Virus record (IMG/VR): IMGVR_UViG_2903109678_000002
Location: 10,656-74,655 of that record
DNA length: 64,000 nucleotides
DNA from: a virus
Lineage: Duplodnaviria > Caudoviricetes
Reading direction: 5' to 3' (one strand)
A program made the translations under genes and the position numbers. Under the pieces are notes generated by a model. The model ran no database searches and was not told the DNA's origin. It was given only the letters and a program-made list of their open reading frames with translations. Numbering within the stretch: the stretch's first letter is position 1; each line of letters opens with the position of its first letter. This document shows, one piece after another, positions 4,032-20,543 of this stretch.

Positions 4032-6826
4032 ACAGTCTCCTCTGGCTGGGGTAATCCCACACTGGCATCACTGGGCAGCTTGAGATTAATCACTGCCAGC
4101 GTGGTTTCAATCGCCTGGTATTTATCTTTATCAGCCTGCGTTTCATTTTTGACATCATTCAGCGTGACATCGGTGACATACCGCACATCAGGGTGCTGTT
4201 GCAGCACCTGCATGATGTCATTAATGGTCAGTGTGTCCCCCGGTTGCACCCGCTGCTGGCCATTCAGCCAGGGCATAAAGTGCTGGCGCAGCATCTCATC
4301 CAACTGACTTTGCAGATTGGCCTGGTTGACATGCTCATCCACGGCAACGTCATATTTCACCACAACGTCGAGATAGCAGGGGTTGAGCACCCGCAGATTG
4401 AGCCAGGGAGAAGCCCGATCGGTAATAAACTGCTGAATCTCTTTTAATCGTGCCGGGCTTAATATCGGTTTGTGGGGGTCCTGCCCCTGGTTGATGCCCG
4501 CTTGTGGGATCACCATAATCTCTTGCACGCGATCGGTAACGAATACCGGTTCTGCTGTTGCGCTAGTGCCCGAACTGGCGGGTGGCACTTTCGGAATATA
4601 CAAACCGTCGAGGATTTTCATACCGGGCAGGCGCACATGATGCACATCCGGGAAGTTGGCAATAATCAACTGGACAATATCGCGCCAGTTAGAGGCACGG
4701 CCACGATGCATAACCTGTTCAGCAATGCGCTGCATGCTGGCGGCATCGCTCTCCTGTGCCTTCCCTCCCCAGCCCGGCAGCGGCTGAAGCACGGCAAGCA
4801 ACCCATTGAACGGGACCACCGTGCTGCTCACCGTACCGGCGGGCAGCGGCGTGGCGAAGTGCTCAGGCGCAATACTGGCGGCATCCACCAACGTGGCACT
4901 CTGGGCATTGGTCCATAAACCATTGAACCATGGGTACGGCTCCACATTCGGCTGCATAGCCAGTAGTTTCTGTTGATCAGTGGCGGTGAGATCCTGAGTC
5001 ATATAGACAGGTAGCTGTACCTGATGGTCAGTGAGTTCAAACTTACTGACCCGAAGCCAGTAGCGTCCCGTGGGCATTAGCGTTGTCTCGTGAGCCGCGT
5101 CCGCTGGCAGCGTCACTGCGCCACTGCCGTTACGGGCAAAGTTGCCGGTGTTGTCACTTAGCTGCTTACTTAACGCTTTCCACTCAGCGACACCGTTAGT
5201 CTGCGACAGGTACTCCCACTCCAGCCCATCAGGCGTGAACGGTACCGGCGTCTCGATGGACCAGTAGAGGCTCAGCTGTTGGCCGGGGTGCATATCCGTG
5301 AAGCCGAGATAGACGTGCGGGCTGGCGAACTCCTCGCGGGATTCAGCATAGCCATAGGGCAGCAGCGCGTATGGGGTAAATGCAACGTCAGCAAGGCTAT
5401 AGCTGACATCGACATCCTCCAGACGGGGATCGTAAGGGGGATTGAGCGGCTTATTCTCGGTGATATTCCCCTCTTTAAACGTCTTTTCATACAGTGCATG
5501 CTGGAAGTCAATGGCCCCTAAATTCACCACCAGCGTATTTTCCCCCTCCTTTAGGGTGCGGGAAAAGATCAGTGCATTATCGCTTTGCCTCTCGCCAAAC
5601 AACGAGACCTCTTTTTGCACCAGATCTTCACTCTTGACCTTGAAAACCCCGTTACCCGAGACAGGATTATTGGGGTAGTTGGCGTACCAGGCCTTAAGAT
5701 CCGCCGGACGTCCCTGCCATTTCGGGGTGAGGGTGAGCGTCAACGTCTGGCCGCTGGCGTTGCGCCATGCCGGAGATGACAGCGTAAAGGGGCTGCCTGC
5801 TTTCGGTGCCATACCAAAAAGATAATTTACCTGTTGAACCGGGCCTGAAACGCCATCGGCGGTCGTCACCGTCACGTCTGCAGCATTGACGACGGTAATC
5901 TCCACCGCCGTCACTTTTGGTAACGTCGCGTTAGATTTTTCCTGATAGAGGCGTATCACCGGGTCGGTCAACAACGCATACTCCGCTGGCGCTTCCGGGC
6001 TCAGGCTCGCTTCCAGGGTGGCCGTTAGCGTATTGCCAGAAACAGAACACAGCAGTGGCTGCCATTTGGTGCCGATGCTCACTTCGGCCTTAAACCCTAC
6101 AGGCGAGCTGTCAAACGTCAGCGTTAACTTACGCTGACCCGCGCCAGCCGCTTGCAGGGCGGCAATCACCAACAGCCAACCGTTGCGCACGGTTTCATCT
6201 TGCGGCTGTCCCCGCTTTCCGCCCAACTGGGGCGAAAATAGCCGCACGCCACCCGCTGGCGGTGTGATGCCCGTCGCCACATCAAGCAGGGTACAGGCCC
6301 GGACGGTGTTTGTGACGGTATCAGGCAGCAGCCAGCGAATATCGGTAATACGCGCATGGTTGATCAGCAGCGGGGCATCCAACCGGTAGTTCACGGGTAC
6401 ACCCGCACTGTCTTGCCCGGCACTGAACAGCAGCCCTTCGGGTACATTCAGCGTCTGGTGCTGCTCATCCGGCGTGAGCTGTAGCATCACCTGGTCGGCC
6501 GCTGCGGGCAGCGGCTTAACCCCGAGCACGCCGCGAAAATAGAGATCGCGATGCCGCGCTGGCAAGGTGTTCATCAGCCGGCGCGGGGTTTCCATCATTT
6601 TGAGGAATGCGAGAAGAAACGCCTGCTGCGGCTGAAGCGTACCCGGTGCCGATGCTGCTTGCTCCAGCAGAGCGGCGAGAGATTGCGGTGTCTGACCATC
6701 ATTAAAGAAAACCTCATCCCAATTCTTAAGATCGTTGAATGGGATAGCACGGGTATATGCCTGGAAATTCTGCAGGTGCGTAAGCAACGAACGATTATCA
6801 TAGATAAACTCTTCTGGCGATGTCAT
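4028..6826 (-). CDS. Afp11/Pvc11-like baseplate J (gp6-like) protein
   Basis: 932 aa; LQPQQAFLLAFLKM...PARHRDLYFRGVLG, AGQDSAG, C-terminal GGKAQES...HRGRA baseplate-J motifs. Confidence 0.9.
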   Translation of the reverse strand: MTSPEEFIYDNRSLLTHLQNFQAYTRAIPFNDLKNWDEVFFNDGQTPQSLAALLEQAASAPGTLQPQQAFLLAFLKMMETPRRLMNTLPARHRDLYFRGVLGVKPLPAAADQVMLQLTPDEQHQTLNVPEGLLFSAGQDSAGVPVNYRLDAPLLINHARITDIRWLLPDTVTNTVRACTLLDVATGITPPAGGVRLFSPQLGGKRGQPQDETVRNGWLLVIAALQAAGAGQRKLTLTFDSSPVGFKAEVSIGTKWQPLLCSVSGNTLTATLEASLSPEAPAEYALLTDPVIRLYQEKSNATLPKVTAVEITVVNAADVTVTTADGVSGPVQQVNYLFGMAPKAGSPFTLSSPAWRNASGQTLTLTLTPKWQGRPADLKAWYANYPNNPVSGNGVFKVKSEDLVQKEVSLFGERQSDNALIFSRTLKEGENTLVVNLGAIDFQHALYEKTFKEGNITENKPLNPPYDPRLEDVDVSYSLADVAFTPYALLPYGYAESREEFASPHVYLGFTDMHPGQQLSLYWSIETPVPFTPDGLEWEYLSQTNGVAEWKALSKQLSDNTGNFARNGSGAVTLPADAAHETTLMPTGRYWLRVSKFELTDHQVQLPVYMTQDLTATDQQKLLAMQPNVEPYPWFNGLWTNAQSATLVDAASIAPEHFATPLPAGTVSSTVVPFNGLLAVLQPLPGWGGKAQESDAASMQRIAEQVMHRGRASNWRDIVQLIIANFPDVHHVRLPGMKILDGLYIPKVPPASSGTSATAEPVFVTDRVQEIMVIPQAGINQGQDPHKPILSPARLKEIQQFITDRASPWLNLRVLNPCYLDVVVKYDVAVDEHVNQANLQSQLDEMLRQHFMPWLNGQQRVQPGDTLTINDIMQVLQQHPDVRYVTDVTLNDVKNETQADKDKYQAIETTLAVINLKLPSDASVGLPQPEETV

Positions 6827-6870: not shown

Positions 6871-7305
6871 TTAACCAGCGGTGACGAAGAATTGAGTGTT
6901 AATAAAGCTGCCGGTGCCGATCATCGGTGACCCAACAGTGGGATCGGGTGTTGAGGCGGGTGGCGGAAGGGTGGCCGGTGTTATGCCTGTGCACACGGCG
7001 ATAAACTTCGTCCCCACGGTAATGACGTTGCCTTTACTGTCACACCAGACCTGAAGCTGGTCGGCGTTTAACGCCTGTATCTCCAGTTTGCAGGTGCCCG
7101 GAACGGTATACGGCGGTGCGATATACGCGGTCGACATCACCTTGGTGGAGAGTTGATTGATATCTGCGGCGACACAGACCTTCAGCGCATTGATGTCGGC
7201 GTGGCCCGTACCGGTCATCACCGCCGGAACGGGCACCACGGTCCGGGTCATAAAAGTGGGGTCATAGAGCACTTTATCGCCGGTCACCACAATAAATTTG
7301 CTCAT
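6871..7305 (-). CDS. Afp10/Pvc10-like PAAR-like spike tip
   Basis: 144 aa; VTGD...GTGHA..KVCV..D...PYTVPG motifs; synteny between gp25 and baseplate. Confidence 0.75.
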   Translation of the reverse strand: MSKFIVVTGDKVLYDPTFMTRTVVPVPAVMTGTGHADINALKVCVAADINQLSTKVMSTAYIAPPYTVPGTCKLEIQALNADQLQVWCDSKGNVITVGTKFIAVCTGITPATLPPPASTPDPTVGSPMIGTGSFINTQFFVTAG

Positions 7306-7745
7306 GCAAATACCCCGCTTCGCCCGTCTGCGACATCCATGAATCCCTCTTCGGTTAGCACGATGTCGGAACCCTGAATTTTGTAGGAAACCTGTAACCG
7401 CAGCACGTTGAAACCCGACTGGCCGGTGCGCAGCACGCTGACATCCTCAAACAGCGCCTCAACGTTGAGGAGTGCGACCCTGGGTTCATAATGGGTAATA
7501 CTCTCCCGTACCAGCGTGGTGATCCGTTGGAGCAAATCCGCATTGACGTTAGCAAAAACCACTTCATGCAGGTCACAGCCGTAACCGGCGTGCATCACCC
7601 GTTCCAGCGGTAAGGTATTAAACAGAATGCGCAGGCTCTGCTGGATATCTTCTACGTAGTTGGCAGCCAGTGCTGCGCCACTGTTAAGGGAGAAACGTGG
7701 CGGGAAGGCCCAGCCACGCCCGTGGATCTCGTCTAATGTTGGCAT
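7302..7745 (-). CDS. Afp9-like gp25/GPW baseplate protein
   Basis: GRGWAFPPRF...DIQQSLRILFNTLPLERVM..YGCDL...YEPRV. Confidence 0.92.
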   Translation of the reverse strand: MPTLDEIHGRGWAFPPRFSLNSGAALAANYVEDIQQSLRILFNTLPLERVMHAGYGCDLHEVVFANVNADLLQRITTLVRESITHYEPRVALLNVEALFEDVSVLRTGQSGFNVLRLQVSYKIQGSDIVLTEEGFMDVADGRSGVFA

Positions 7746-7763: not shown

Positions 7764-9404
7764 TTAACCCTGTTTCAGGCTGACCAGCGCCCCTTTCACA
7801 TCAACACCCGCTTTTCCCGCCACTTCTGTTTTCGCCGTGGCATCAAGTTTGATGTTAACTTTCGCCTTGATGGTGGCATTGGTATCCACATCCAGCGTGG
7901 CTTCGCCTTTATTAAGTACCAATGCGCTTTTCACCCCGGCTAACTCCTGCTGTAGCGTGATACCGGTAGTCGGACTGAGCATCAGAGACTGCTTGAGCTG
8001 TTTTTCGCTGTTGGTATGCACAATCCCTACGCCGTCCGCCGGAGTGAGGAACGGTGTCTGATTGAGGGTGCTGTGCATCGAACCGAGAATCACCGGGTAA
8101 CAGGGATCTTCATCAATAAACGCCACCACCACTTCATCTCCCTGTTGCGGATAGAAGCTAAAGCCATGGCCTTTGCCAGCGTAAGGGCTGCTGAGGCGAG
8201 CCCGAATCGGCGTTGGTTTGCTCAGCTGGAGCGCGGGGATGTCAATGGCCAACGTATTATCCGCAGGCAACGGCCCAGAGGGGTTCACACCGATGACCCC
8301 CACATGCAAACCTGGCGCGCGTGGCACGCGCTCGTGGGTTATGGGTGGCGCATACTCGCTGCCGATTTCTAACAGGGTCTCCCAGTCTTCCAGGCCCTGT
8401 GTCGCGGCGGAGAAGCGATGCCTCACCCCCATCACCAGCGCCGTTCCGTCACTGGCAGTACCAAACCCTGCCAGCAGCACGCTGTTGCCGGGCTCAATGC
8501 TGGCATCACCGTGAATAGCCAGCTCTGCGGAGACGGCACTGAGATGGTTCATTTGCAGGCGAGCGGTGGCTAACTCAACCGCTTCGCCCGGATCCAGCAT
8601 GTTATAACCTTGCTGCCAAATGGCGGTGTTTAACGGCTTAACCAGCTTTGCATCGTATGCCATTAACCCCAGCATAGCGGGCAGGCCTGCACCGGGGAGT
8701 AGCTTCTGCGTTGGCACGTTCCAGCCGCCGACGTTGATCCCCTGCGCCAGTTGCTCGTTACTGTGGGTGATGGTTAACCTGCGCAGTCCCTCTTTCCCTG
8801 GGACAAAACGTACAACCGGCGCTGCCGCCAGCGGCTTAATCGCGGAAACTACGCCCAGCCCATTGGTGGCGAGCATCAGGCCACAGGCATTCAGCCGGGT
8901 TTGCACATAGCGCCAGTCAGAACAGTTGAACTGAATCATCTGGGGATGGCTGATTTTCATCCCCTCAACTTTACCCGCTACGATGCCGTGCTGCGTCAGG
9001 ATCAGGCGCAGGATCGCTTCATCCGTCATCATCGGCCAGACCTGGCTCTGATACGTTGACTTCAGCAACTGCAACGCATGGCTGAGATGTAGCTCCAGCG
9101 TGCGGGATTTATCATCCATTGAAAGTTGTGTGCGCGTCAGCCGCCCTGTAAACAGCGCGGTTTTACCCACCATAATCGTGGCCACAGCCCCCGGCAGGAA
9201 CGATGCCAGTTCGGCTTCCACCTCGGGATTAGGCACTTTGCCTGGTTTCGGGCATTGAAGTACCAGCTTTGCTGTCGATACCTCATTGAGTCGGTTGATG
9301 GTGGTCAACTCAACCAGCCGAAACCCTTTGAGTGCGCTGGCTTTTTTCGTGGGCTCAACCAGGACTTTACCTGCCACGGATACTGTTAACTGATAATTGG
9401 CCAT
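7764..9404 (-). CDS. Afp8-like VgrG central spike
   Basis: 546 aa; QFNCSDW, YAGKGHGFSFYPQQGDEVVVAFIDEDPCYPVILGSMH (gp5 OB-fold motif). Confidence 0.92.
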   Translation of the reverse strand: MANYQLTVSVAGKVLVEPTKKASALKGFRLVELTTINRLNEVSTAKLVLQCPKPGKVPNPEVEAELASFLPGAVATIMVGKTALFTGRLTRTQLSMDDKSRTLELHLSHALQLLKSTYQSQVWPMMTDEAILRLILTQHGIVAGKVEGMKISHPQMIQFNCSDWRYVQTRLNACGLMLATNGLGVVSAIKPLAAAPVVRFVPGKEGLRRLTITHSNEQLAQGINVGGWNVPTQKLLPGAGLPAMLGLMAYDAKLVKPLNTAIWQQGYNMLDPGEAVELATARLQMNHLSAVSAELAIHGDASIEPGNSVLLAGFGTASDGTALVMGVRHRFSAATQGLEDWETLLEIGSEYAPPITHERVPRAPGLHVGVIGVNPSGPLPADNTLAIDIPALQLSKPTPIRARLSSPYAGKGHGFSFYPQQGDEVVVAFIDEDPCYPVILGSMHSTLNQTPFLTPADGVGIVHTNSEKQLKQSLMLSPTTGITLQQELAGVKSALVLNKGEATLDVDTNATIKAKVNIKLDATAKTEVAGKAGVDVKGALVSLKQG

Positions 9405-9421: not shown

Positions 9422-10156
9422 TCAGTGACCGACCATAAGGTTCTCACCCACCTGGGGCTGATTCAGGCTGTCTAAATCGTTATCAACGGCGGTGCCCACG
9501 TAATCCACGCTGTCGCCCTGCTGTTCGCCCATCGCCGCAGCGGCAGCTGAAGCGGCTGTCAGTCCCGCGATCAGGGCAATCACCGCTGGCAGCACGGTCA
9601 GGTCAGGAACGGTCAGGTTGGGCATACTCAGACCCGCACCGACGGTGGTATCCGTTTTATAGTGCACGCCTTTAATCGAGAAACTGACTGAGGCCTGAAT
9701 CGGCTCTCCTTGTCGGTTAAACAAGGTACGATTGATGGCCAGGCTGGTCATTAATCCTTCATAGGTCGTTGGACCATAGACAAATTTTACCCGTACCGGA
9801 TTCGAGGTCAGCATATCTACCCCATGCACCAGGACCGTTAACGCCTCAATAATTTGCTGCACGGAATAAACGCGTTTTTCAGGCAGCGTGGAATCGAGGG
9901 TTAACGACAGATGCAGGGTCACGCCACTGGTCTGAGTACGCATCTCACTGTCTTTACCACCGGATAAGCTACTGACACTCTGGTAGCTGGACGTATGGGT
10001 GGTATGCAAATTGTCTGGATTGAAATGCAGAGGAATGCCCAATGGAAACAGCAGCAATTCCGGTGCGGTGACACCGACAGTGTAAGACTCATCGCTATAG
10101 CCATATAAGGTGGCTTTGGCGGGAATCATGGTTTTCAGCTGGCTGACGATACTCAT
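9422..10156 (-). CDS. Afp7-like tube initiator/hub protein
   Basis: FNPD..., LSLTLDST, FNRQGEPIQASV, degenerate C-terminal LysM-like NDLDSLNQPQVGENL. Confidence 0.8.
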   Translation of the reverse strand: MSIVSQLKTMIPAKATLYGYSDESYTVGVTAPELLLFPLGIPLHFNPDNLHTTHTSSYQSVSSLSGGKDSEMRTQTSGVTLHLSLTLDSTLPEKRVYSVQQIIEALTVLVHGVDMLTSNPVRVKFVYGPTTYEGLMTSLAINRTLFNRQGEPIQASVSFSIKGVHYKTDTTVGAGLSMPNLTVPDLTVLPAVIALIAGLTAASAAAAAMGEQQGDSVDYVGTAVDNDLDSLNQPQVGENLMVGH

Positions 10157-10332
10157 CTGAACCTCCAGGCTTCATCACGTATTTTTGCCATCACCTGGCT
10201 CATGACCTGGCGCGAAATACGATTGACCAGGTCCGCTTCGGTAACCGGAGAGAGAGAGGCTGCCGGTGGCTGATCGTTGATATCATCAGTGACGCGTGCT
10301 TCGATGATCAGTTCACGAATTTCAATCGTCAT
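10153..10332 (-). CDS. Afp6-like small protein
   Basis: MTIEIRELIIEARV N-terminus typical of Afp6/Pvc6; start moved to ATG at 10332. Confidence 0.8.
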   Translation of the reverse strand: MTIEIRELIIEARVTDDINDQPPAASLSPVTEADLVNRISRQVMSQVMAKIRDEAWRFR

Positions 10333-10793
10333 AGTTTGACTCCCAGCCATTCAATGCTGCGACAGGTAAACTCAAAGCTGTTGATCAGCGGCTGGCCCGA
10401 ATCGGCATCCAGCGCCCCGTATTGCATGCGCACCGGGAGTGCATCACTCGCCATCCAGATTGACTGCGGCTTGCCAGACTCCCCCAGCAGCATGATGGTA
10501 ATGTCGAAATAGGTGACCGAGGTCAGGAACTCGCTCAGGATCAACTGCACTCCCACGCTCATCGGTGTGGGGATCATCACCCCCCGATCAAACACCAGGT
10601 TTGAAGTGGTCGAGCGCTGCGGGAGTACCCGGTTGCTGGCGTTATGCCCGCCTTCGTGAATCGATCGGGTCTGTAGCTGGTAGCCGAGCCCCGTGATACT
10701 GGCAAACTTAAAGCTTAACGGGTCTGGTACTAAGCCCAGCAAGACAAAAGAGGCGAGAAAACGGTGATTCAGTTCAGGCTGATAGATGCTCAC
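10329..10793 (-). CDS. Afp5-like tail tube protein (T4 gp19 family)
   Basis: HRFLASF...FASITGLG...EGGHN...LVFDRG...DADSG; probable GTG start at 10793. Confidence 0.85.
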   Translation of the reverse strand: MSIYQPELNHRFLASFVLLGLVPDPLSFKFASITGLGYQLQTRSIHEGGHNASNRVLPQRSTTSNLVFDRGVMIPTPMSVGVQLILSEFLTSVTYFDITIMLLGESGKPQSIWMASDALPVRMQYGALDADSGQPLINSFEFTCRSIEWLGVKL

Positions 10794-10794
10794 G

Positions 10795-11991
10795 TTATCC
10801 TCCCGTGGCCGCGACATGCTCGGCAGTCAGATAGAAGTCGAGATTAATATGGATAAATTCGGCCGGTCTTTGGGTCGCCACCGCCACCCTGACGCGCAGC
10901 AAACCACTGGCGATTTCACTGGCTGACATGGTTTCATCCAGACCGACACTGATTTTATAGGCATCATCTTCTACGCCCCCGGCCAGCCCCCCTTGTTCCC
11001 ACAGCCTTTTAAGCTGTTGGCGCACCACGGCATGCAGCCGGTACCAGGTGATTTCATTGTTAGGTTCAAAGACATAAGGGCGCATAGCCTCTTTCAGCGT
11101 CTGTTTAATCCACTTGACCAACCGCTGATTTTGCAGATAGACAAAGCGCAGGTCAGGTTGATTACTCAACGTGCGGCAACCCCAAATTTTAACGCCGCGA
11201 CCGGGGAAACTGCGGATCTGATTCACCGAGCGGCCGCTGCGCGGATCAGGATGGAACAACGTGACGGGTGTGAGATGGTCATACTGGGGTTTGAGCACCC
11301 GCTCCAGCCGCAGGTTAGCGGGGGCGTACCAGATACCCCGCTGCTTATCAGACTGTTGCATTTTGGCCGCCACGGCCGCACCCGGAGGCACGGCCCGCAG
11401 CGCGCGCGTGGGAAAGGCCGGATCTTCGCTGACCATCACCCACGGCCAGTATCCCGCAAGGTGTGCCCAGTGTTCATTGCCCCATTTTGCGTTGTATTTT
11501 TCTGCGTCAGCAGGCGCACTCGGATAGTCAATTAAACCCGTCAGGTTCAGGCTCGAGGCGCAGCAGATGGCCAGTTGATTAACCACACTTTCCCACTGGT
11601 TCTCATCTAGCAGCGGGAGTTCTGGCAGCACCACCAGCGTAATGGTGGGCTCGTCTGCCAGCAGGGCAAAGGCTTCATCGTAGCCCGTAACAGAGGGGAC
11701 ATCGTCGATCAGTGTGCCGAGAGAAATCACATAGCACTGGCCGCCACCATGACTGAAGTAGAGGCGCATAGCGTCGGCGAGATAGCCACCGTTGCGCACA
11801 GCATCACGGCCAAACTGGTCATAATAGTCTTGCAGCGAAGTGACCTGTACCCGCTCAAGTACCGATGCTTCAGGATGGTCGGCATAACCAATAAACACCG
11901 GCAGCGCGGTGAGTTTTTCCCGCTGGCTGATGTTGATGATCTGTTGATGAAAAGAGACGCCGGGCTGACTGAAATCACTGTTCAAAGACAT
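10795..11991 (-). CDS. Tail sheath paralogue 5 (Afp4-like)
   Basis: RGIWYAPAN, NQIRSFPGRGVKIWGCRTL, VFEPNNEITW, RPAEFI. Confidence 0.92.
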   Translation of the reverse strand: MSLNSDFSQPGVSFHQQIINISQREKLTALPVFIGYADHPEASVLERVQVTSLQDYYDQFGRDAVRNGGYLADAMRLYFSHGGGQCYVISLGTLIDDVPSVTGYDEAFALLADEPTITLVVLPELPLLDENQWESVVNQLAICCASSLNLTGLIDYPSAPADAEKYNAKWGNEHWAHLAGYWPWVMVSEDPAFPTRALRAVPPGAAVAAKMQQSDKQRGIWYAPANLRLERVLKPQYDHLTPVTLFHPDPRSGRSVNQIRSFPGRGVKIWGCRTLSNQPDLRFVYLQNQRLVKWIKQTLKEAMRPYVFEPNNEITWYRLHAVVRQQLKRLWEQGGLAGGVEDDAYKISVGLDETMSASEIASGLLRVRVAVATQRPAEFIHINLDFYLTAEHVAATGG

Positions 11992-12056: not shown

Positions 12057-13331
12057 CTAAGCGGCCATAAGATCCTGCGAGAAGTCGAGCCAGAGAAACT
12101 CCACCGGACGCAGCGCCGCCAGCCCGATGCGGATGCGCAAAATGCCAAGGCTTAACTCACTGGACGTCAGCGCCAGTTCAACCTGGAAAGCCTGCTGTGG
12201 CGTTTCCCCATACAGCCCTCCCTGCTGCCACAGACGGTGCAGATACTGATTGATTGCTGCCCGCGCCGACTGCCAGGTGCCTGCTGAGTTGGGTTGATAC
12301 ACCACCGGCAGCAGCAGGTTACGGACATCGCGCTCAACGGTGTTAAACAGCAGCCGCACCGGGATGTAGCGCCAACTGCTGTCGCTACTGGTCGCCAGCG
12401 TGCGAGCGCCCATCACCGTCGTGCCACCTTGTTCCTGCCAGAGAATGGCATTAACGCCCCGTTCGTTGAGATCACCATGCTGAGCGTTACCAATGGCACG
12501 CTGCGGGTCAACGCCTTCCAGCGCAAGATTGGCGCTGGCCTGCCACACGCCCAGTTGGCGCTCGGTGCGACAGTAAAGCCCGGCAACAGGTGCACAGGGT
12601 GAGAGCGTGAAGGTGTTCAGGTGCTGGTAATCCACGGTGACGAGATTGAGCCACTGCTTGACCTTGCGATAGGTTTCCCGCTGTTTAGCCGTCCCCTGCG
12701 CCAGCGAGCTGAGGCTGCATGCAAGGTCACGGAGCCAGATATCCGACGCCTGAATACTGAGCGGTTGACGCGGCACCAGATCCGGCGTGTAGCAGGCACT
12801 CTGTGCCTGTTCGCCGTAACGCGGTGGATTCCCACTGCCAACCACATAGCGCAGCAGCAAAAACGACTGTGGTAGCCGTGAAGTTAAGCCACCAAGCTGC
12901 GTCAGAATAGCCTCATCATCATGGCCCACATCAATCAGCGCCATCAGCGAGATATCATCCCGCTGCGCGAGGATTTCGCTGAGGCGCGCAATCTCATCAC
13001 CCTGCGCCAGCGACAGGATGTAACAAGGGCCACCGCCGTTTTCGAAGTAGCTGCGCAAGGCAAATGCTGCGCTGTGAACGGCACTGCGTTCTGGCTGTAG
13101 GCTGTCTGGCAGTGAGTCGGTCTCGACTTCCACCCACACTTGCGCCCCCTGCAACAGCTGGCAGTAGTGCTGCCAGTTTTCAATCCACACCGGGCCATAG
13201 CTAAGGCTTAGTGGCGTGTTGTCCTGCTGACGAAAACGCCCCACCAGCAATGGCACCAGCTTGCTCATGCCGGGACTGGCCAGTGCCAGCCGGTTGTTCT
13301 CTTTAATAAATACGCCGGGATAATTGCTCAT
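12057..13331 (-). CDS. Tail sheath paralogue 4
   Basis: YPGVFIKE, YFENGGGPCYI, GVWQASAN, WRYIPVRLLF, RPVEFL. Confidence 0.9.
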   Translation of the reverse strand: MSNYPGVFIKENNRLALASPGMSKLVPLLVGRFRQQDNTPLSLSYGPVWIENWQHYCQLLQGAQVWVEVETDSLPDSLQPERSAVHSAAFALRSYFENGGGPCYILSLAQGDEIARLSEILAQRDDISLMALIDVGHDDEAILTQLGGLTSRLPQSFLLLRYVVGSGNPPRYGEQAQSACYTPDLVPRQPLSIQASDIWLRDLACSLSSLAQGTAKQRETYRKVKQWLNLVTVDYQHLNTFTLSPCAPVAGLYCRTERQLGVWQASANLALEGVDPQRAIGNAQHGDLNERGVNAILWQEQGGTTVMGARTLATSSDSSWRYIPVRLLFNTVERDVRNLLLPVVYQPNSAGTWQSARAAINQYLHRLWQQGGLYGETPQQAFQVELALTSSELSLGILRIRIGLAALRPVEFLWLDFSQDLMAA

Positions 13332-13402
13332 CCTCTTCTCCTGGGAATCCATCGGGCCGCAGGGCGGCTGACGGCGAAGGGTTCAGGTGGTTAGGTATAG
13401 AT

Positions 13403-14800
13403 TCAGGCGAGAACCTGTAGCTGTTGGGTAAATTCCAGTTCGATAAATTCTGCGGGCCTGAGCGGCGCCAGGGCGACACGAATGCGCATTACCCCTTGTG
13501 CCTCGTCATCCTCATCCAGCGCAACCTGCACCTGGAAGGCCTGCTCCGGGGTCAGCCCTTGTAATCCACCCCGTTTCCACAGCAGGTAGAGGTATTGGCG
13601 GATGCCCGCCGTGGCCGCTTGCCAGCTGCGTGCGCCGTTGGGTTCGAACACCTGCGGTTGGATTATCGCCTGTAGATCTCGCTGCACCGCGTTAAACAGC
13701 AGGCGTACCGAGACGAAGCGCCCGTTGAGGTCTTGCGTGTCTGCGGTGCGCGCCCCGGCGATCACCGTGCCAGTGCGAGGCGACCACAGCAGCGGGTTAA
13801 AGCCTGCCTGAGTGAGCTCCGCCTGCTGCGACAGAGTGAGATTATGGGTCGGCGCGGGGCCAGCGAGTTGAATGTTGGCCGGTGCTTTCCAGATGCCGCG
13901 TTCGCGTTCAGTTTTGCAGAAAACACCGGCGACACCACCGGAAGGGGCCAGGGTAATAGCCCGTAGAATGCTGTCATCGAACTGGTCAGTGTTACGCCTG
14001 GCGGTGACATTGGCATATTGCTCTCTTTGCCTTTCATCATCGCTGACTTTAAGTTGTGCAAGGGTTTTACCGGTGCCCGCGAGCAGGGTGCTCTCTTCTT
14101 CCAGTTCACCGCCCGGCGAAGAAAACTTCAGTGCAGGTGTGTAAGTTGCAACCTGGCGGTTATCCGGCAGCGGTTGCGGAGGTACAGCGCCAGGGTACGG
14201 CTGATGGGTAATCAGCATGGCTTGTGGGTTAATTTCCTGCAACAGCGGAAAGGCAGTTTGCATGGCCACTTTGGCCTGGTCATCCAGGGCTACGTACAGG
14301 GTAATGTCATTATATTCTTGCAAAGAACCCGCGATTTTTCCCCCTTGCTGCTCGCTTTCGCAGTGCATGACATAGCAAGGGCTGCCACCATTATCAAAAT
14401 AACATTTGACCCCAGCAGCACCCGTAGCGATGTCTGATGATTTAAGCACCACAATGTGATTATTTTCAGGTACTGGCACTGCACCGAATGTCACATCGTC
14501 TTCCATTGCGGAGAGGGATGTTTGCAGCGGCGATTCATCGCCTTGTTTTCTGTCTCCCCCCTTTTCAACAATCGGTTCTCCCCAACCATTCGCTAAAACA
14601 ACGGTACGGGCATAAGGCGCGAATCTGGCCAGAAAAGCCTGATAACTGTCAATCCACAGCGGTGCATTAACATGCTCGTCAGGATCGCCGCTGCAGCTCA
14701 GAAAACACCCCAACAACAGCGGCACATGGCCACTCGCGGCTGCCGCTCCCCGGCTGGGTGAATCCACTTCAGTAATACGCACACCAGGAATGTTACTCAT
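13403..14800 (-). CDS. Tail sheath paralogue 3
   Basis: IPGVRITE, YFDNGGSPCY, RGIWKAPAN, VFEPN, RPAEFIELEF. Confidence 0.9.
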   Translation of the reverse strand: MSNIPGVRITEVDSPSRGAAAASGHVPLLLGCFLSCSGDPDEHVNAPLWIDSYQAFLARFAPYARTVVLANGWGEPIVEKGGDRKQGDESPLQTSLSAMEDDVTFGAVPVPENNHIVVLKSSDIATGAAGVKCYFDNGGSPCYVMHCESEQQGGKIAGSLQEYNDITLYVALDDQAKVAMQTAFPLLQEINPQAMLITHQPYPGAVPPQPLPDNRQVATYTPALKFSSPGGELEEESTLLAGTGKTLAQLKVSDDERQREQYANVTARRNTDQFDDSILRAITLAPSGGVAGVFCKTERERGIWKAPANIQLAGPAPTHNLTLSQQAELTQAGFNPLLWSPRTGTVIAGARTADTQDLNGRFVSVRLLFNAVQRDLQAIIQPQVFEPNGARSWQAATAGIRQYLYLLWKRGGLQGLTPEQAFQVQVALDEDDEAQGVMRIRVALAPLRPAEFIELEFTQQLQVLA

Positions 14801-14946: not shown

Positions 14947-16350
14947 TTACGCGGCGGCTAACAGTTCCTGAGTAAACTCCAGGTCGATAAACTCCACCGG
15001 GCGCAACGCAGCAAGGCTGACGCGTACGCGCAGGATGCCGTTGTCGATATCCCCGTCTTGCAGCGCAATCTGCACCCGATAGGCCTCTTCTGGCGAGTTG
15101 CCAAACAGCCCACCGCGTTTCCAGATACCGTGCAGATAGTTACTGATACCCGCCACTACCGCTTGCCAGGTAGGTGCTGAGTTCGGCTGGAAGATAATCG
15201 GTGCCAGCATTGCGCTGACATCACGTTCCACGGTGTTAAATAACAGGCGTACCGGGACGTAGCGCCAGTTAGTAATGTTGGGATCTGCGGAGGTGCGCGC
15301 CCCCATGATTGAAGTGCCCTTCTGCGGCGACCACAAAATGGCATTGACCCCAGCCTCGTTCAAAACACCGTGTTCCTGGGCACTAATAGTGTGTACTGGC
15401 GTTACCCCCACCAGAGAAACGTTCGCAGGTGCTTTCCACACCCCACGGTTGCGCTCGCTGGTGCAATACGCGCCCGCCACAGCGGCAACTGGCGAGAGAG
15501 TTAGCGAACTCACCGCTGAGAAATCCAGTGGCGCGAGTGCCAGATTGTCTTTTACCGTTTTGTAAACGGCTTTATCTCGCTGAGCGGAAAGCAGCGCATT
15601 ACCCAGGAAAATACCGTTTTCATTCACCACGTTGAAATTACTCTCCAGCTTCAGCTCTGGGGTGTAACTGGCAGAAAATTCATTTTTAGGCATGACCGGG
15701 CCGGCTGGTGGCGTACTGCCGGTAAACGCTGCATGGGCAATAAACAGGGATTGTGGATTATGCTCTTGAATCGCGGCAATACTGCCTTTAACCAGCTCTT
15801 GCGCACTGGCATTCAAAGGCACATACAACGAGACTTCATCCAACTCTGCCGTGGCTTTTTCTAAATCGTCTTTTGCATCAGAAGCGCTTAAAGCGAGGAG
15901 ATAGCAAGCGCCGCCCCCGTTCGAAAAATAGCTGGCCACTGCTGCCGAGGAATTGTCATACAAATATGAACTGCTGATTTTTGTTGGCTGGCCGCTGGTA
16001 AAAGGTACCTCCGTGGCCGCAGCCACGCTATCAGCCTCTTTTGTCGCTTTTTTACTTTTTTTAGCTTCTACGCCTCCTGCCTCTTCGCCGCTTTCTTCAT
16101 CACCGCCTTCCGGAAGGGGGGCCGCCTGGCCCCATGCCGGCGCCAGTTTAATAATCAGCGGGGCCGCAACGAATTTTTCAGCAAACTCCGCATAGTTAGC
16201 CACATAGACTGCGCCATCTGCCGCATTGGCTTGCGTTCCGTCCTTTTTCCAAAAGGCTCCCACCAAAAGCGGCACCAGGCCGCTCATGCCCGCAGCACCC
16301 ACCGAAGGGGTACTGCTTTCAATAATTTTCACTCCAGGATTTCTACTCAT
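14947..16350 (-). CDS. Tail sheath paralogue 2 (Afp3-like)
   Basis: NPGVKIIE, YFSNGGGACY, RGVWKAPAN, WRYVPVRLLF, RPVEFI. Confidence 0.92.
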   Translation of the reverse strand: MSRNPGVKIIESSTPSVGAAGMSGLVPLLVGAFWKKDGTQANAADGAVYVANYAEFAEKFVAAPLIIKLAPAWGQAAPLPEGGDEESGEEAGGVEAKKSKKATKEADSVAAATEVPFTSGQPTKISSSYLYDNSSAAVASYFSNGGGACYLLALSASDAKDDLEKATAELDEVSLYVPLNASAQELVKGSIAAIQEHNPQSLFIAHAAFTGSTPPAGPVMPKNEFSASYTPELKLESNFNVVNENGIFLGNALLSAQRDKAVYKTVKDNLALAPLDFSAVSSLTLSPVAAVAGAYCTSERNRGVWKAPANVSLVGVTPVHTISAQEHGVLNEAGVNAILWSPQKGTSIMGARTSADPNITNWRYVPVRLLFNTVERDVSAMLAPIIFQPNSAPTWQAVVAGISNYLHGIWKRGGLFGNSPEEAYRVQIALQDGDIDNGILRVRVSLAALRPVEFIDLEFTQELLAAA

Positions 16351-16377: not shown

Positions 16378-17646
16378 TCACGCGCCACTGGCAACTTGTT
16401 GGCTAAACTCCAGCACGATAAATTCCGCCGGGCGCACCACCGCAATACCGATACGCGCTTTGAGGATTCCGTTATCAATGTCGGCCTGAGTCATGGTGAC
16501 TCCCAGTCCCACCTGAATAAAGAAGGCCTCTTCCGGCGTATTCCCCTGTAACGCGCCTTTTTTCCACAGGTTGTAGAGGTAGTTCTCTACGGCGGCACGC
16601 ACCGCCTCCCAGGTTGCCTGGCCGTTGGGCTCAAACAGCACCGATTCCAGCGCCCGGCCAATATCGCGTTCTGCCATATCAAAGGTACGGCGCACCGGGA
16701 CATATCCCCAGGCATTGCCGCCAGTGGTCAGCGTGCGAGCGCCCCATAGCAGCAGACCACGCCCTTTGAATTCGCGCAGAATATTGACGGATTTGGTGGT
16801 GTGGTTTCCGCTGGTAAACAGGGCTTGCGTGGCTGACCCCACTTTAACCAGTGGGCTTAAACCCGAAGAGACAGCAGCATTTGCCGGTGCTTTCCATGGG
16901 CCTACGCTATTGTCAGTGCGACAGATGATGCCCGCTGCGACAGCACTCGGCGCAACATTAGCAATCTCGGTCACCCCCGGAATGCTCCAGTTGGCTTTCA
17001 GCCATGGATAATAAACTGCAGCATGCTCTGTGGCCTGGATACCGCCGAGCGCAGTTTCAAGCTCACCTTTAACATCCCCTTTTGACTCCTCCGGCCCGTC
17101 CAGTAGAGCAAAACGCCCACTGCCTTCCGCGGTGTACTTCAGGATGTCAGATGTTACTGTGCTCTGACCCGCCTGCACCACCAGGGTGACATCGGGCAAT
17201 TTGTCCAGCCATTCGAGCTTATCTCTGGGCAGCAGATAGCAATAACCGCCACCATTATCAAAATACGCTTTAAGGGCGGGTAAAGTGTGTCGATCCCAGT
17301 CCGGCACATCTGCCGTTTTGGTATTCACACCCATGGCATCGGCAAGACGAGGATGATGCGCCGGCCCGCCACGAGAAAGGCGTGAAAGCAGACTAACAAC
17401 GGCACGCGGCGAGTAGTAGGCCACGCTTTCCGATTTACTCCCGCTGGCGGAGAAATAACTGAGTACATCCGCAAACGAATTGATCAAAGCGGGTTTTTCG
17501 CCCAACGCCTTCCACCAATCCAAAGAGCCCGAATTGCCGTCCAGAATCACCGGTACTGCTGTCGCCGAGCTGCTGATGCTGAATGAGGGCAAATCCACCT
17601 CATCCACATACACGCCCGGCGCTTTTGGTAAAGTAAATACAGCCAT
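16378..17646 (-). CDS. Tail sheath paralogue 1 (Afp2-like)
   Basis: APGVYVDE, YFDNGGGYCY, WKAPAN, WGARTL, QVGLGVTMTQADI, RPAEFIVLEFSQ. Confidence 0.93.
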   Translation of the reverse strand: MAVFTLPKAPGVYVDEVDLPSFSISSSATAVPVILDGNSGSLDWWKALGEKPALINSFADVLSYFSASGSKSESVAYYSPRAVVSLLSRLSRGGPAHHPRLADAMGVNTKTADVPDWDRHTLPALKAYFDNGGGYCYLLPRDKLEWLDKLPDVTLVVQAGQSTVTSDILKYTAEGSGRFALLDGPEESKGDVKGELETALGGIQATEHAAVYYPWLKANWSIPGVTEIANVAPSAVAAGIICRTDNSVGPWKAPANAAVSSGLSPLVKVGSATQALFTSGNHTTKSVNILREFKGRGLLLWGARTLTTGGNAWGYVPVRRTFDMAERDIGRALESVLFEPNGQATWEAVRAAVENYLYNLWKKGALQGNTPEEAFFIQVGLGVTMTQADIDNGILKARIGIAVVRPAEFIVLEFSQQVASGA

Positions 17647-17673
17647 ATAACCTCCAGAAGGTTAAGCAGTACA

Positions 17674-18129
17674 TTACAGGGCGTGGCATTCCACGGTCAG
17701 ACGATCGGCATTCAGGGTGATCTGCTTCGCCGCCACTTCATTGCTGGAAGCTTCGAGGCTTGGCCCGGTAATTCCGGTTGGGAAGCAGTTGAATACGTTC
17801 CAGGTGACATAGAGCTTTTTGCCCGATTCATCCGTCAGACTGATGGCGATATCTTTTTTGCCATCTGCGTGGTTGGCATAGTTATACAGCCACTCATACA
17901 GCTTGCACTCACCTGGGAAGATCGCCTGAGAAAGGGTGATAGAAGGTAACTGAACGCGCGTGATGTTGCGGAACAGGCCGCCCATACCATCGCGGTATTC
18001 ATAACTTTCATACTGCTGGTCGAGGCCGCTTACTGAACTACAGCGGATCACATCACCGTCAATGGTTACAGTGAAGCGAAAACCGGGAACCGGATAACTT
18101 GCATCAATGATATCAGTGGTATCTGCCAT
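17674..18129 (-). CDS. Afp1/Pvc1-like major tail tube protein
   Basis: YPVPGFRFTVTI...SVSGLD...YRDGMG...KKDIAISLTDE...VTWNV.NCFPT..GPSLEASSNEVA. Confidence 0.93.
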   Translation of the reverse strand: MADTTDIIDASYPVPGFRFTVTIDGDVIRCSSVSGLDQQYESYEYRDGMGGLFRNITRVQLPSITLSQAIFPGECKLYEWLYNYANHADGKKDIAISLTDESGKKLYVTWNVFNCFPTGITGPSLEASSNEVAAKQITLNADRLTVECHAL

Positions 18130-18203
18130 GGTTATTTCTCACTTTGCAGGTTTGAACGTATCCGCTGCCCGCAGGCAGTCAGGATGGATGAACAACATTG
18201 ATT

Positions 18204-19580
18204 TCAGGAGGTCCCGGTGGCTGACCTCAGAGGAACTAATTGCGTCAGGTTATTGTTAGAAGCGAATCTGGAATCTTGTGCGATCACAGAATCGGGGTGA
18301 ATCCCTGGTAGTGGCGCCATCACGCCGAGCACCTGCTCAACGCTAATAAACTTCGAGCAGGAAAACTGTTCACTGGTGCCCTTGTGACGTGGACACCAGA
18401 AAAAATCCTTTCGATCAAATTGATAGCGAGTGTCATTCCAGCAGCTATTGCAGACGTGGGTGTTAGTCACCCGATAGGGCGTGGCGAACTCGGTCGCTGG
18501 ATTGCTAAATCCGCTGATCATCACCACCGGTGTGCCTGCGGTCCAGGCCAGCCAGGAGAGCCCGCTACTGAGGCCGACAAAAAATTCCGCGTGCATCAAC
18601 CACCGCAGACGCTCGCTCAAGGGGCGATTGCCGGTTTCGTCTTCAGCGCCATGGGGAATGTGATTCCAGGTCAGATCGCGTCCTACTGTGGTCTCTTTGT
18701 CGATGCAGATCACCCGATAACCGCGTTCTTTAAGCTCCCGCACCAGTTGTATCCAGCCAACGGGATTGTTCCAGAATTTACACTGCGAGGTAGACTGAAC
18801 GCCGATACAGACGTAAGGCTCCGCAATGGGGCGACGGTTTTCAGCCAGCCTGAACTGTGCGGGGTTTTCATCTGGGGCAAGGCCAAGAATGGCGCTGGCG
18901 ATATGGTGTAGTGGCGTTTGTTGACCGTCAACCGGGCAGTATTCCCCCTGCGTATCCCCTATACCTGCATTCAGGAAGTAGGTGGCGTAATAGGTGGTTT
19001 CATCCGGTTCATACGGATCAATAAAGCGAATTTGCGGATAGCTGCTGGCAAAAACATCGTGGAAGCGTGCCGAGACACGGACCGTGAGACGGCACTGATG
19101 GCGTACCTGAAAACGCATCACTGAGGGCAGCCAGGCGAGGGTATCCCCCAGGGTATCTTCGGGGATTTGTATCAGCACCGGTTGCTGATACAAATCCATG
19201 ACGTGCAACATGACAATCTCATTGTCTTTCTGCACCTGAAAGGCAAACGGCACGTAATACTTGTGTTTACTCTCAACCATCCCTCCTGACACCGCAGTAT
19301 CACCAAACACGTGATAGTTCTGGATATCCACTACGCGTACGCGCCAGTTGCCTTCGGGTAGGTGAATGCGACAACCATGATTAAAGTCAAACAAAATGCC
19401 TGTGCCCTCTGCCCCCTGCTGGGTCGGCAGCTCGGGAACGGGGGCATAAGGCGACTTTTTAAAATCAGAATCAGAAGCCACGGCGTACGACGACTCTGGT
19501 ACAGAATCTTCTACGTGTTCGGGTTGTGGACGACTTTCAGGCGATGGAAATGCAGCGTTATTAGGCGTAAAAAAACTCAT
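18204..19580 (-). CDS. TibC/Aah-family (BAHT) protein O-heptosyltransferase
   Basis: GILFDFNHGCRI, SKHKYYVPF, TLGDTLAW (catalytic Asp context), QSTSQCKFWNNP, FFVGLSSGLSWLAW, iron-finger cysteines CNSCWND...WCPRH...FSC. Confidence 0.92.
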   Translation of the reverse strand: MSFFTPNNAAFPSPESRPQPEHVEDSVPESSYAVASDSDFKKSPYAPVPELPTQQGAEGTGILFDFNHGCRIHLPEGNWRVRVVDIQNYHVFGDTAVSGGMVESKHKYYVPFAFQVQKDNEIVMLHVMDLYQQPVLIQIPEDTLGDTLAWLPSVMRFQVRHQCRLTVRVSARFHDVFASSYPQIRFIDPYEPDETTYYATYFLNAGIGDTQGEYCPVDGQQTPLHHIASAILGLAPDENPAQFRLAENRRPIAEPYVCIGVQSTSQCKFWNNPVGWIQLVRELKERGYRVICIDKETTVGRDLTWNHIPHGAEDETGNRPLSERLRWLMHAEFFVGLSSGLSWLAWTAGTPVVMISGFSNPATEFATPYRVTNTHVCNSCWNDTRYQFDRKDFFWCPRHKGTSEQFSCSKFISVEQVLGVMAPLPGIHPDSVIAQDSRFASNNNLTQLVPLRSATGTS

Positions 19581-19665
19581 ATTTCACCTTTATTTTTAAA
19601 TAGGGCAGGTTATTTTTTCTGCTTATTGAGTTTTTATTTGCAGATTTATAAAAAAGTGTTTTAGG

Positions 19666-19677
19666 CAGACTACCGTC
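19666..19677 (-). promoter_or_regulatory. ops-like element (RfaH-family antiterminator recruitment)
   Basis: Minus strand GACGGTAGTCTG versus consensus GGCGGTAGnnTG (one mismatch), 85 nt upstream of the first gene of a >19-kb operon. Confidence 0.65.
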
Positions 19678-20043
19678 CTCAGACATTCAAGCTGATTTTT
19701 GGTAATTTTTTTCTTGCAATAAAGGGCATTCCTGGCGAGTGCCAGATATAACCAGTTGAGTCGATCATGTGTTCCGCGAGGTGTTGCGGTCAGAGATAAT
19801 ATTAACCAGGTTTCTTAATTCAGCAAGCAGGTAAGACAATAAATAGGACAAACAAACACAACCATATGATTTTTAATCAAAAAAATAATTTATCGCTAGT
19901 TGAAAAATGTGACAGAGGCGTCAATTACAATAAAATCATGGTAAAGCAAGGGGTTGGCATGACCTATAGTTACTGTCTCAATAGCCGTTTTATCCATATA
20001 TTTTAAAAAAAACCTTAATAATCAACACTCATAAATCCTCGAT

Positions 20044-20057
20044 TAGGATAAAACTCA
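20044..20057 (-). promoter_or_regulatory. RcsAB/RcsB-like box
   Basis: Minus strand TGAGTTTTATCCTA versus TaAGaatatTCctA. Confidence 0.4.
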
Positions 20058-20189
20058 TTCAATTAATGCCATTTTATCCATAGCGCTGGATCACGGTAAG
20101 CTCGGGAACATGACAATCATATGGGGGAATATTCAGGGCTTATTTCAATATGATTAAAATCACATGACTGAACCGACATGGATTAAAAA

Positions 20190-20203
20190 TAGGATTAGTC
20201 TTA
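20190..20203 (-). promoter_or_regulatory. RcsAB/RcsB-like box
   Basis: Minus strand TAAGACTAATCCTA, 12/14 to TAAGAATATTCCTA with all core positions kept. Confidence 0.55.
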
Positions 20204-20421
20204 TTTTAGAAAAAGATCAGCCACCACGCCTACTGCTGTTCAACGTGAGAGTGATCAAGGGGACAGGAAGAGCATGTTTGAGGCGCATTCTGAAGATTGA
20301 ACAAACTGCTCTTTATAACCGCAATATTGATGCGGTTTAAGTGGTTGGTGGCCAGAAGCCAGGCAAATGATATCAGGAAAGGATATCAGGAAAGGATATT
20401 GAGAAAGGAGGTGTAGAAACG

Positions 20422-20442
20422 AAAAAACCGCCCTTAGGCGGT
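20422..20442 (-). terminator. Intrinsic terminator downstream of the tRNA 3' end
   Basis: ACCGCC-TAAG-GGCGGT followed by TTTTT on the minus strand. Confidence 0.8.
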
Positions 20443-20487
20443 CACGACATTACTACATATTGCTTTGATTTTATTCAGCTTTTACAT

Positions 20488-20543
20488 TGGTGCCCGGGGC
20501 GGGACTTGAACCCGCACAGCCATAAGCCGAGGGATTTTAAATC
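20488..20543 (-). pseudogene. leuZ: 3' half of tRNA-Leu(TAA), prophage attachment site
   Basis: Minus strand GATTTAAAATCCCTCGGCTTATGGCTGTGCGGGTTCAAGTCCCGCCCCGGGCACCA: anticodon loop, long variable arm, T-arm and CCA. D-arm and 5' acceptor strand are absent. Confidence 0.88.

Follow-up and report, generated by a model that had tools for sequence, protein, structure and literature searches.

A TibC/Aah-family protein O-heptosyltransferase gene at the head of an extracellular contractile injection system locus in Pantoea

This work concerns a gene for a protein O-heptosyltransferase that precedes an extracellular contractile injection system (eCIS). Both lie in a stretch of 64,000 nucleotides, positions 10,656 to 74,655 of the IMG/VR record IMGVR_UViG_2903109678_000002 (Duplodnaviria; Caudoviricetes). 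We call the whole of this stretch the window, and its DNA belongs to a Pantoea. The enzyme is of the BAHT family, whose usual neighbours are autotransporter genes. In the window, an enzyme of a known family stands beside a partner system that is new for it and conserved.

Gene organization of the locus

Three features form the core of the locus.

18204-19580, minus strand: BAHT, TibC/Aah-family protein O-heptosyltransferase, 458 amino acids, intact (matches in Pfam, in NCBIfam and to the TibC structure)
18130-18203, minus strand: spacer between BAHT and tube gene, 74 bp, hairpin without a U-tract; its last bases before the tube ATG, GTGAGAAATAAC, are common to the metagenome locus L193
17674-18129, minus strand: tube, Afp1/Pvc1 type, 151 amino acids (Phage_T4_gp19, E 4.6e-27)

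A preliminary description of the window had named the enzyme as the lead gene of an eCIS row, co-oriented with the Afp1 tube gene and 74 bp from it. The coordinates agree, on the minus strand.

The heptosyltransferase

The protein has the domain architecture of a BAHT, an N-terminal beta-barrel and a GT-B (GT9) catalytic domain. Pfam places TibC_1st (PF21129) at residues 60-119 (E 1.1e-18) and GT9 (PF01075) at residues 244-382. The NCBIfam equivalog TIGR04414 (autotransporter strand-loop-strand O-heptosyltransferase) is matched with 532.6 bits against a cut-off of 200. Two other members of the clade reach 500.2 bits (P0003) and 546.5 bits (P0004). The TibC structures 4rap and 4rb4 match residues 41-424 with E 6e-112.

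The roles of single residues in the alignment are taken from the TibC paper (PMC4358343). D146, in the motif LGDTLAW, aligns with the catalytic base of TibC, Asp-110. T264, K268, R324 and W343 align with the sugar-binding T226, K230, R286 and W305. Likewise, C377, C380, C396 and C408 are the counterparts of the iron-finger cysteines C339, C342, C358 and C370. The full TibC/Aah-type enzyme with a GDT motif and four iron-finger cysteines, as first described, is therefore confirmed. K268, R324, W343 and the four cysteines are invariant across the nine clade sequences that were aligned, and one of the nine has Glu at the position of the catalytic base. Every BAHT seen in the clade is an intact open reading frame (ORF). 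From the retained residues, the window enzyme is predicted to be catalytically active.

S338 lies at the site of P300 in TibC and S294 in AAH. In swap experiments, a serine at this stereoselectivity position allowed both ADP-heptose epimers to be accepted (PMC4358343). With its AAH-like serine, the window enzyme should take both ADP-D,D- and ADP-L,D-heptose. The donor genes hldE and hldD are present in the genome, both over their curated cut-offs, so the sugar donor is available.

The window enzyme carries an N-terminal extension of about 45 amino acids, and its N-terminal peptide is common to its nearest relatives. BAHTs from outside the clade can have such extensions too, with alignments that reach back to residue 1-4. 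The GC content at third codon positions is 0.575 for the BAHT gene, 0.586 for the first tube gene and 0.579 for the first sheath gene. As far as sequence can tell, the window enzyme has all the features that define a BAHT. Only the gene context, which is usual and not defining, differs: the gene next to it is a tube gene and not an autotransporter gene.

The eCIS gene row

The genes after the BAHT are co-oriented in one row. They comprise tube, sheath, spike and tip, gp25 and large baseplate proteins, which is the gene set of an eCIS.

16378-17646, 14947-16350, 13403-14800, 12057-13352 and 10795-11991, minus strand: five consecutive sheath paralogues (Phage_sheath_1C)
10329-10817, minus strand: second tube paralogue, Afp5 type (Phage_T4_gp19, E 1.2e-14)
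9422-10156, minus strand: contractile injection system (CIS) tube-family protein, Afp7 position (PF19266 CIS_tube, E 1.5e-16)
7764-9404, minus strand: spike, VgrG/Afp8 type (Phage_GPD and Phage_base_V)
7302-7745, minus strand: baseplate wedge gp25 homologue (GPW_gp25, E 6.3e-20)
6871-7305, minus strand: CIS spike tip protein (PF19267, E 1.2e-33)
4028-6826 and 996-4031, minus strand: two large baseplate proteins, Afp11 and Afp12 positions, homologous to the genes at the same positions in L016-L018 and L193/L279
1-974, minus strand, continuing past the left edge: start of the CIS tape-measure gene (PF19268 CIS_TMP, E 6.3e-14)
Left of the window: fibre of 487 amino acids, Pvc16 cap (PF14065 Pvc16_N), AAA ATPase and two sheath-like fusion proteins

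Four of the five sheath paralogues lie above the Pfam cut-off, and 10795-11991 obtains 23.1 bits against 26.9 (E 7.6e-05). The window tube is 88% identical to the tube of L193 and 75% to that of L016. No Pfam match was obtained for the proteins at the Afp11 and Afp12 positions. Tape measure, Pvc16-type cap, AAA ATPase and fibre were all found, and the fibre carries an adenovirus-fibre N-terminal motif. The eCIS has seven sheath paralogues, five after the tube gene and two after the ATPase (L004:9345-13513). Capsid and DNA-packaging genes are absent from the Pfam results for cluster ORFs of 100-120 amino acids or more. No toxin or cargo gene is recognisable at the 3' end, where the two sheath-like fusion proteins stand between the ATPase and a core sulfate permease gene.

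Some details of these genes deserve mention. The last sheath-like gene lies 170 bp from the core sulfate permease gene (boundary L004:9345-9172). The metagenome record has instead a convergent ORF of 2034 amino acids, without a Pfam family and possibly cargo (L279:122-6226). One sheath-like protein after the ATPase (465 amino acids) has a long tail of Pro-Glu repeats at its end. The other (828 amino acids) has a fused C-terminal domain of about 390 amino acids with a weak PD40/beta-propeller hint. This sheath-propeller fusion has a full-length homologue (830 amino acids, 37.5% identity) in the BAHT-linked metagenome locus (G496) and was not seen in the corresponding region of a BAHT-less Enterobacter locus, an anecdotal comparison of three loci. 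The CIS tape-measure protein (about 800 amino acids, window 1-974 plus L004:18571-19998) contains about nine degenerate repeats of about 39 amino acids (…QPLLRQRVAGQLKSTPVGVNAQA…). They are visible in the translation and were missed by TRF at the DNA level.

Linkage within the clade of the window enzyme

Among 5.8 billion proteins, none outside its own cluster is related to the window BAHT at more than 58% identity. The 90% protein cluster of this BAHT includes a protein of Pantoea sp. A4, which is 92% identical. In a metagenome scan, eCIS genes were present in one of the best 80 BAHT loci, and this was the closest one, L193 (identical to the IMG/VR locus L273). Its BAHT is 54% identical to that of the window. 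A gap of 105 bp, ending in GTGAGAAATAAC before the ATG, separates it from the tube gene, and the order of BAHT, gap, tube and sheath is the same. After the tube come three sheaths, a second tube, the Afp7-position gene, VgrG, gp25, the tip and the Afp11-position gene. Further on, the record (G496) contains the Afp12-position gene, fibre, tape measure, Pvc16, sheath-propeller fusion and ATPase. On this 35.6-kb metagenome contig, no autotransporter-like ORF was seen among ORFs of 100-120 amino acids or more.

Two further contigs carry the same junction. A contig of 20,313 bp from run X2 spans 17000-19828 unbroken, with 197 differences, and a contig from run X4 bridges 18032-18338. Both are about 93-96% identical to the window, so they are near relatives and weak as independent evidence. 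Only X2 and X4, whose records bridge the junction, were used, and the pieces of X3 and X6 on the stretch were short.

For nine BAHT proteins or clusters, the longest contig is exactly equal in size to the longest contig of a cluster of the nearest sheath homologues, which indicates a shared contig and not adjacency.

BAHT entries: P0002, P0003, P0004, P0005, P0006, P0008, P0121, P0125, P0127
Sheath entries: P0135, P0134, P0140, P0132, P0138/P0151, P0145, P0131, P0129, P0130
Shared contig sizes: 123627; 127138 (S. marcescens); 35646; 227761 (S. odorifera); 20969; 23592; 94318 (S. marcescens); 59930 (Pantoea sp. A4); 6203

The preliminary description had let its reading depend on conservation of the linkage in other genomes. 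The linkage recurs in L193 and in the contigs of X2 and X4. Equal contig sizes extend it to Pantoea sp. A4, two lineages of S. marcescens, S. odorifera and other assemblies. A scan of genome contigs with the sheath alignment returned only five loci, and no Serratia locus among them.

We compared the phylogenies of both proteins. The BAHT tree has 69 rows and comes from a quick search, in which the program flags long branches. It separates nine eCIS-linked rows and two rows of unknown context from all others by one branch (SH-aLRT 100, length 0.78). On the other side of this branch are 58 rows, 42 of them with an autotransporter-like ORF. The sheath tree has the same main groups as the BAHT tree: window/A4, P0006, P0003/P0005 and P0002/P0121. 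The S. odorifera and second S. marcescens lineages lie outside that group of the sheath tree. This congruence of the sequence trees fits a long co-inheritance.

In the sheath tree, the eCIS of Enterobacter sp. ECC-175, which has no BAHT, and some rows of unknown state sit among the linked ones. Parts of the lineage have therefore lost the BAHT or never acquired it. ECC-175 has the closest sister eCIS that was examined, and no BAHT was found anywhere in its genome. Two small ORFs occupy the place of the BAHT upstream of its tube gene (L016:7964-9006), and by eye they resemble a holin and lysozyme-type lysis pair.

Six differences are fixed in the clade with respect to the 58 other BAHTs (H90, F92, G93, H226, L234 and A241), three of them in the N-terminal beta-barrel. 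We rejected an argument for re-targeting from these residues, which are too few and map poorly onto the TibA interface. Taken together, the sequences indicate that the BAHT clade of the window travels with one eCIS lineage in Pantoea and Serratia.

Survey of other BAHT and eCIS loci

Neighbourhoods of TibC/Aah-family genes had been proposed as a test of the linkage, and the outcome was divided. It was positive within the clade of the window enzyme, as described, and negative in the broad sets. No BAHT lies within 10 kb of the eCIS in 71 loci that were found with the sheath protein in species-representative genomes. Conversely, eCIS genes were absent from the first eight distinct BAHT places examined, from 18 BAHT loci of 400 other genomes of the same family, and from the best 80 of 389 BAHT relatives in genome contigs. 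The plasmid collection holds homologues of the P0002 BAHT in 220 records, all below 60% identity and at 47-49% among the 25 matches listed.

A large ORF rich in G, S, T and N stands directly downstream of the BAHT in 17 of the 18 loci of the same family, in five of the first seven loci and in 50 of the 80 wider loci. We take these ORFs to be classical autotransporter partners. Four of the 80 wider loci had too little downstream sequence. Among the remaining 76 (L114-L192), such an ORF is missing from the 1.5 kb downstream of the BAHT in 26 loci. In Alpha- and Betaproteobacteria, BAHTs with another kind of partner, or with none, are therefore common.

Intergenic gap and leader

The preliminary description had reported that the sole hairpin of the gap, CUGCCUGCGGGCAG, has no U-tract, and this holds. 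The fold of the gap is not better than that of shuffled sequence (z 0.49). A consensus scan of the minus strand gave no terminator-like or promoter-like site in 18130-18203, nor within the BAHT gene. The gap is also free of pseudogene remains. Upstream of the BAHT lie two further features.

19581-20487, minus strand: leader, AT-rich and non-coding, GC 0.38-0.44, no ORF of at least 50 amino acids on the minus strand
19666-19677, minus strand: ops-like 12-mer GACGGTAGTCTG, one mismatch to GGCGGTAGNNTG, 86 nt upstream of the BAHT start codon

The leader is presumed to be the promoter region. We infer that the BAHT and the eCIS are transcribed together from it. Up to 19828, the leader is about 93% identical in the 20-kb contig of run X2, which has 719 other letters in place of 19829-20410. 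A tandem direct repeat of about 13 nt (…TCCTTTCCTGATA…, two copies) occurs at about 20370-20400 on the minus strand, just downstream of the terminator of a tRNA. It lies within the part that is replaced by other sequence in the X2 contig. The window leader could not be aligned with the leaders of the eCIS loci L016-L018 (best E 0.89), and it resembles that of L193 only in the ribosome-binding region.

The ops-like element was given weight in the preliminary description, and the sequences do not support this. The 12-mer exists with one mismatch, but the window has three such matches against 3.39 expected by chance, and none (at most one mismatch) occurs in the related loci L193 and L016. It is probably a chance match. 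The genome encodes RfaH and NusG, and no further paralogue.

Genomic island and neighbouring prophage

Among other species genomes of the genus, none of 74 has the eCIS sheath. In the same-genus genomes G007 and G029, the sulfate-permease gene, which here forms the left flank of the eCIS, lies 2.3-3.7 kb from a tRNA cluster. Here, these two points are about 75 kb apart. Compared with G007 and G029, the extra DNA consists of the 30-kb stretch with BAHT and eCIS, plus a prophage of 43.6 kb. The short distance in both genomes thus places BAHT and eCIS inside one inserted stretch.

20488-20517, minus strand: 3' fragment of tRNA-Leu(taa), marker of the right boundary and end repeat of the neighbouring prophage

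The same 30 nt occur a second time, without a mismatch, in the intact tRNA-Leu immediately to the right of the window (C11:674299-674328). The terminator hairpin of the tRNA follows the fragment, as a terminator-like site at 20443-20426. The repeat bounds the prophage, which is an element separate from the eCIS. The prophage (about 43.6 kb, window 20518-64000, to about 64076) is integrated in tRNA-Leu(taa) of a Gly-Cys-Leu tRNA cluster. It contains a tail fibre, a tail-tip-like ORF of 1722 amino acids, an ORF of tape-measure size (1174 amino acids) and large ORFs of head-gene size.

Autotransporters and alternative explanations

No autotransporter lies within the window, as had been noted before. 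The acceptor had been sought beyond the left edge, and this did not hold: only further eCIS genes and then core genes are found there. In the whole genome, the Autotransporter domain gave two matches, on contigs C1 and C44, and the Pfam search for AIDA repeats gave none. The C1 protein (G000:C1:40089-42947, about 950 amino acids) has GGxIxGN-type beta-helix repeats in its passenger and is the only clear autotransporter of the genome. It is rare in the genus, with distant homologues (31-33% identity) in three of 74 genomes, and it scores far under the cut-offs of Ag43-type families. The C44 ORF was dropped as a substrate. Its 381 amino acids are too short for an adhesin-type passenger, and by eye it looks like a barrel of porin type.

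Given the C1 protein, with its passenger built of repeats, the BAHT might act in trans on this unlinked autotransporter, or promiscuously on envelope proteins, and its position at the eCIS would merely lend it a promoter. BAHTs without a G/S/T/N-rich neighbour are common, as seen above. Heptosyltransferases of E. coli are described as promiscuous in their choice of target (PMC5000012), and Aah and TibC are interchangeable, both glycosylating Ag43 (PMC3835316). We still regard action in trans as unlikely. Linkage to the eCIS is kept over about 45% protein divergence, across genera and with congruent trees, which promoter sharing does not explain. The absence of autotransporter-like ORFs among those of at least 100-120 amino acids on the 35.6-kb contig and the lack of AIDA repeats and of Ag43-level scores in the C1 protein argue in the same direction.

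The eCIS particle is six-fold symmetric, and a ring of BAHT could be structural, without catalysis or with part of it, as a six-fold assembly chaperone or scaffold for fibres or baseplate. TibC is a dodecamer of D6 symmetry and binds six substrates simultaneously (PMC4358343), and half of the six fixed changes are in the beta-barrel, a domain suggested to act in substrate recognition or to maintain the integrity of the enzyme. However, all catalytic and sugar-binding residues are kept in the window enzyme, which argues for retained catalysis. The invariant residues of the nine clade members, one with Glu at the catalytic base, also speak against a scaffold, and the sister eCIS assembles its gene set without a BAHT. 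We consider a structural role improbable.

A hitch-hiking remnant of a BAHT-autotransporter pair, with its partner lost and no present function, seems more improbable still. The canonical partner is missing and the gene is at the edge of the island, beside a tRNA integration hot spot. Nevertheless, the ORF is intact in all clade members seen, the catalytic residues are conserved over a long divergence, always with the eCIS, and the gap has no pseudogene remains.

ADP-heptose is a bacterial metabolite, which counts against an enzyme that is itself cargo or effector of the eCIS. We give this last idea hardly any credence: glycosyltransferase toxins are known eCIS cargo (compare the glycosyltransferase domain of Yersinia ruckeri Afp18), the window eCIS has no recognisable 3' toxin gene and the BAHT has its N-terminal extension, but cargo genes lie at the 3' end (PMC8213781, Fig. 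7) and the BAHT at the 5' end, a dodecamer of 578 kDa (PMC4358343) is too large for the tube lumen, and similar extensions occur beyond the clade.

Proposed function and candidate acceptor

We think it probable that the BAHT heptosylates a component of the particle. The gene would have been recruited once into the eCIS lineage of Pantoea and Serratia, and retained as the first gene of the operon. It would be expressed together with the particle genes from the promoter of the AT-rich leader, with ADP-heptose supplied by the lipopolysaccharide-core pathway. Particles of the eCIS type assemble in the cytoplasm and are released later, so an enzyme encoded by the lead gene would meet every particle protein. 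Heptose would be put on serines in strand-loop-strand motifs of one of them during this assembly. The sugar may stabilise the acceptor or tune target binding, as for AIDA-I and TibA.

Published work on the family is compatible with such a range. BAHTs are described as modifying folded beta-rich substrates in the cytoplasm, and Aah recognises a strand-loop-strand motif rather than a sequence (PMC3835316). In the flagellin of enterotoxigenic E. coli, 14 Ser/Thr are heptosylated, with the responsible enzyme left open (PMC5000012).

The likeliest single acceptor would be the tail fibre, which we name as possible rather than probable. It is favoured since its shaft is the sole part that is G/S/T/N-rich, built of repeats and exposed on the surface. 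Among 20 eCIS proteins tested, the fibre has the highest G+S+T+N fraction, 0.363 overall and 0.427 in its richest 150 amino acids. The latter overlaps with the values of the ORFs downstream of other BAHTs (0.42-0.50). By eye, the fibre has short repeated strand-turn-strand units. Compared with Pantoea sp. A4, it is 62% identical and the fastest-evolving part, against 92% for both sheath and BAHT. A homologue search returned only three relatives of the fibre, and an AlphaFold2 model from a six-row alignment was unusable (mean pLDDT 38.8, pTM 0.20). The tube, surface extensions of the sheath paralogues, the sheath-propeller fusion and unlinked cargo are alternative acceptors.

Several points weigh against heptosylation of the particle, or of its fibre. 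In seven of the linked cases, equal contig size is the sole ground for adjacency. Such particles can be built without the enzyme, as the BAHT-less eCIS of ECC-175 indicates. No AIDA-type single-chain beta-helix repeat was found in any eCIS protein, either by Pfam or in the sequences read. TibC threads a beta-helix through its dodecamer ring, a mechanism worked out for a monomeric beta-helix, and a trimeric fibre may not fit it. If the substrate is encoded by the gene that follows the BAHT, as is the rule in the family (17 of 18 loci, and the AIDA-repeat protein of locus L274 described below), one would expect the tube and not the fibre. Finally, the unlinked beta-helical C1 autotransporter could be the true target.

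Comparison with known systems

The closest parallels are TibC-TibA and Aah-AIDA-I. The window enzyme belongs to the same family by all sequence tests. Like TibC and Aah, it is a cytoplasmic enzyme whose gene immediately precedes that of a surface structure, the assembly or export of which comes later. In contrast, the window BAHT precedes an eCIS tube and not an autotransporter, and it forms a separate clade with six fixed differences. BimC-BimA of Burkholderia pseudomallei, as published, pairs a member of the BAHT family with a partner that is not a classical AIDA-type monomeric autotransporter. This shows that the family can change partners, although the partner of BimC is still a type V secreted protein.

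Afp of Serratia entomophila and PVC of Photorhabdus share the gene set and order from tube to ATPase, and they occupy chromosomal or plasmid islands in Enterobacterales. In the operons published for Afp and PVC, the tube gene comes first, and an RfaH operator lies between the transcription start and pvc1 (PMC6748792). The window eCIS differs in the glycosyltransferase before the tube, the seven sheath paralogues (two with C-terminal extensions) and the lack of a recognisable 3' toxin.

Mycobacteriophages reportedly encode glycosyltransferases that decorate capsid and tail proteins in the cytoplasm before release. Their enzyme families, sugars and hosts are different, and they are true phages and not eCIS. 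By analogy, this virion glycosylation and the Afp18 cargo toxins appear to be the nearest cases, both different in kind.

A contractile-tail setting also occurs in the IMG/VR locus L274. There, the BAHT is also among contractile-tail genes but, unlike in the window, it brings its own acceptor with AIDA repeats. Its BAHT is 45% identical to that of the window, and the tree did not include L274. The sequences point to another, independent instance of a BAHT within a set of contractile-tail genes. The cassette lies in a myovirus-type morphogenesis module (L274:4554-8562), between the baseplate spike gene and the gp25 wedge gene. It comprises a LysR regulator, the BAHT and, 14 bp downstream, a protein of 442 amino acids with AIDA repeats and a Hint domain.

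We found no literature description of an eCIS or tailocin with a dedicated protein glycosyltransferase; the supplements of eCIS surveys lay outside this search and may list such domains. The string 'glycosyl' occurs zero times in the main text of the eCIS survey by Geller et al. (PMC8213781).

Implications

Tentatively, and short of calling it probable, the eCIS lineage of Pantoea and Serratia might build particles with heptose on the repeats of the fibre shaft, and perhaps on surface extensions of the sheath, by means of a co-diversified BAHT clade. Particles of the eCIS type are under development as programmable tools for protein delivery and for biocontrol, and it is the fibres that determine their target. 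If the particles are heptosylated, the substrate range of BAHTs would extend past type V secreted adhesins, and a glycan coat would be a new layer of eCIS host range or stability. One lead gene would then offer a simple genetic handle. A sugar coat would become part of the targeting or stability of a CIS, and this would be the first CIS that is glycosylated after translation.

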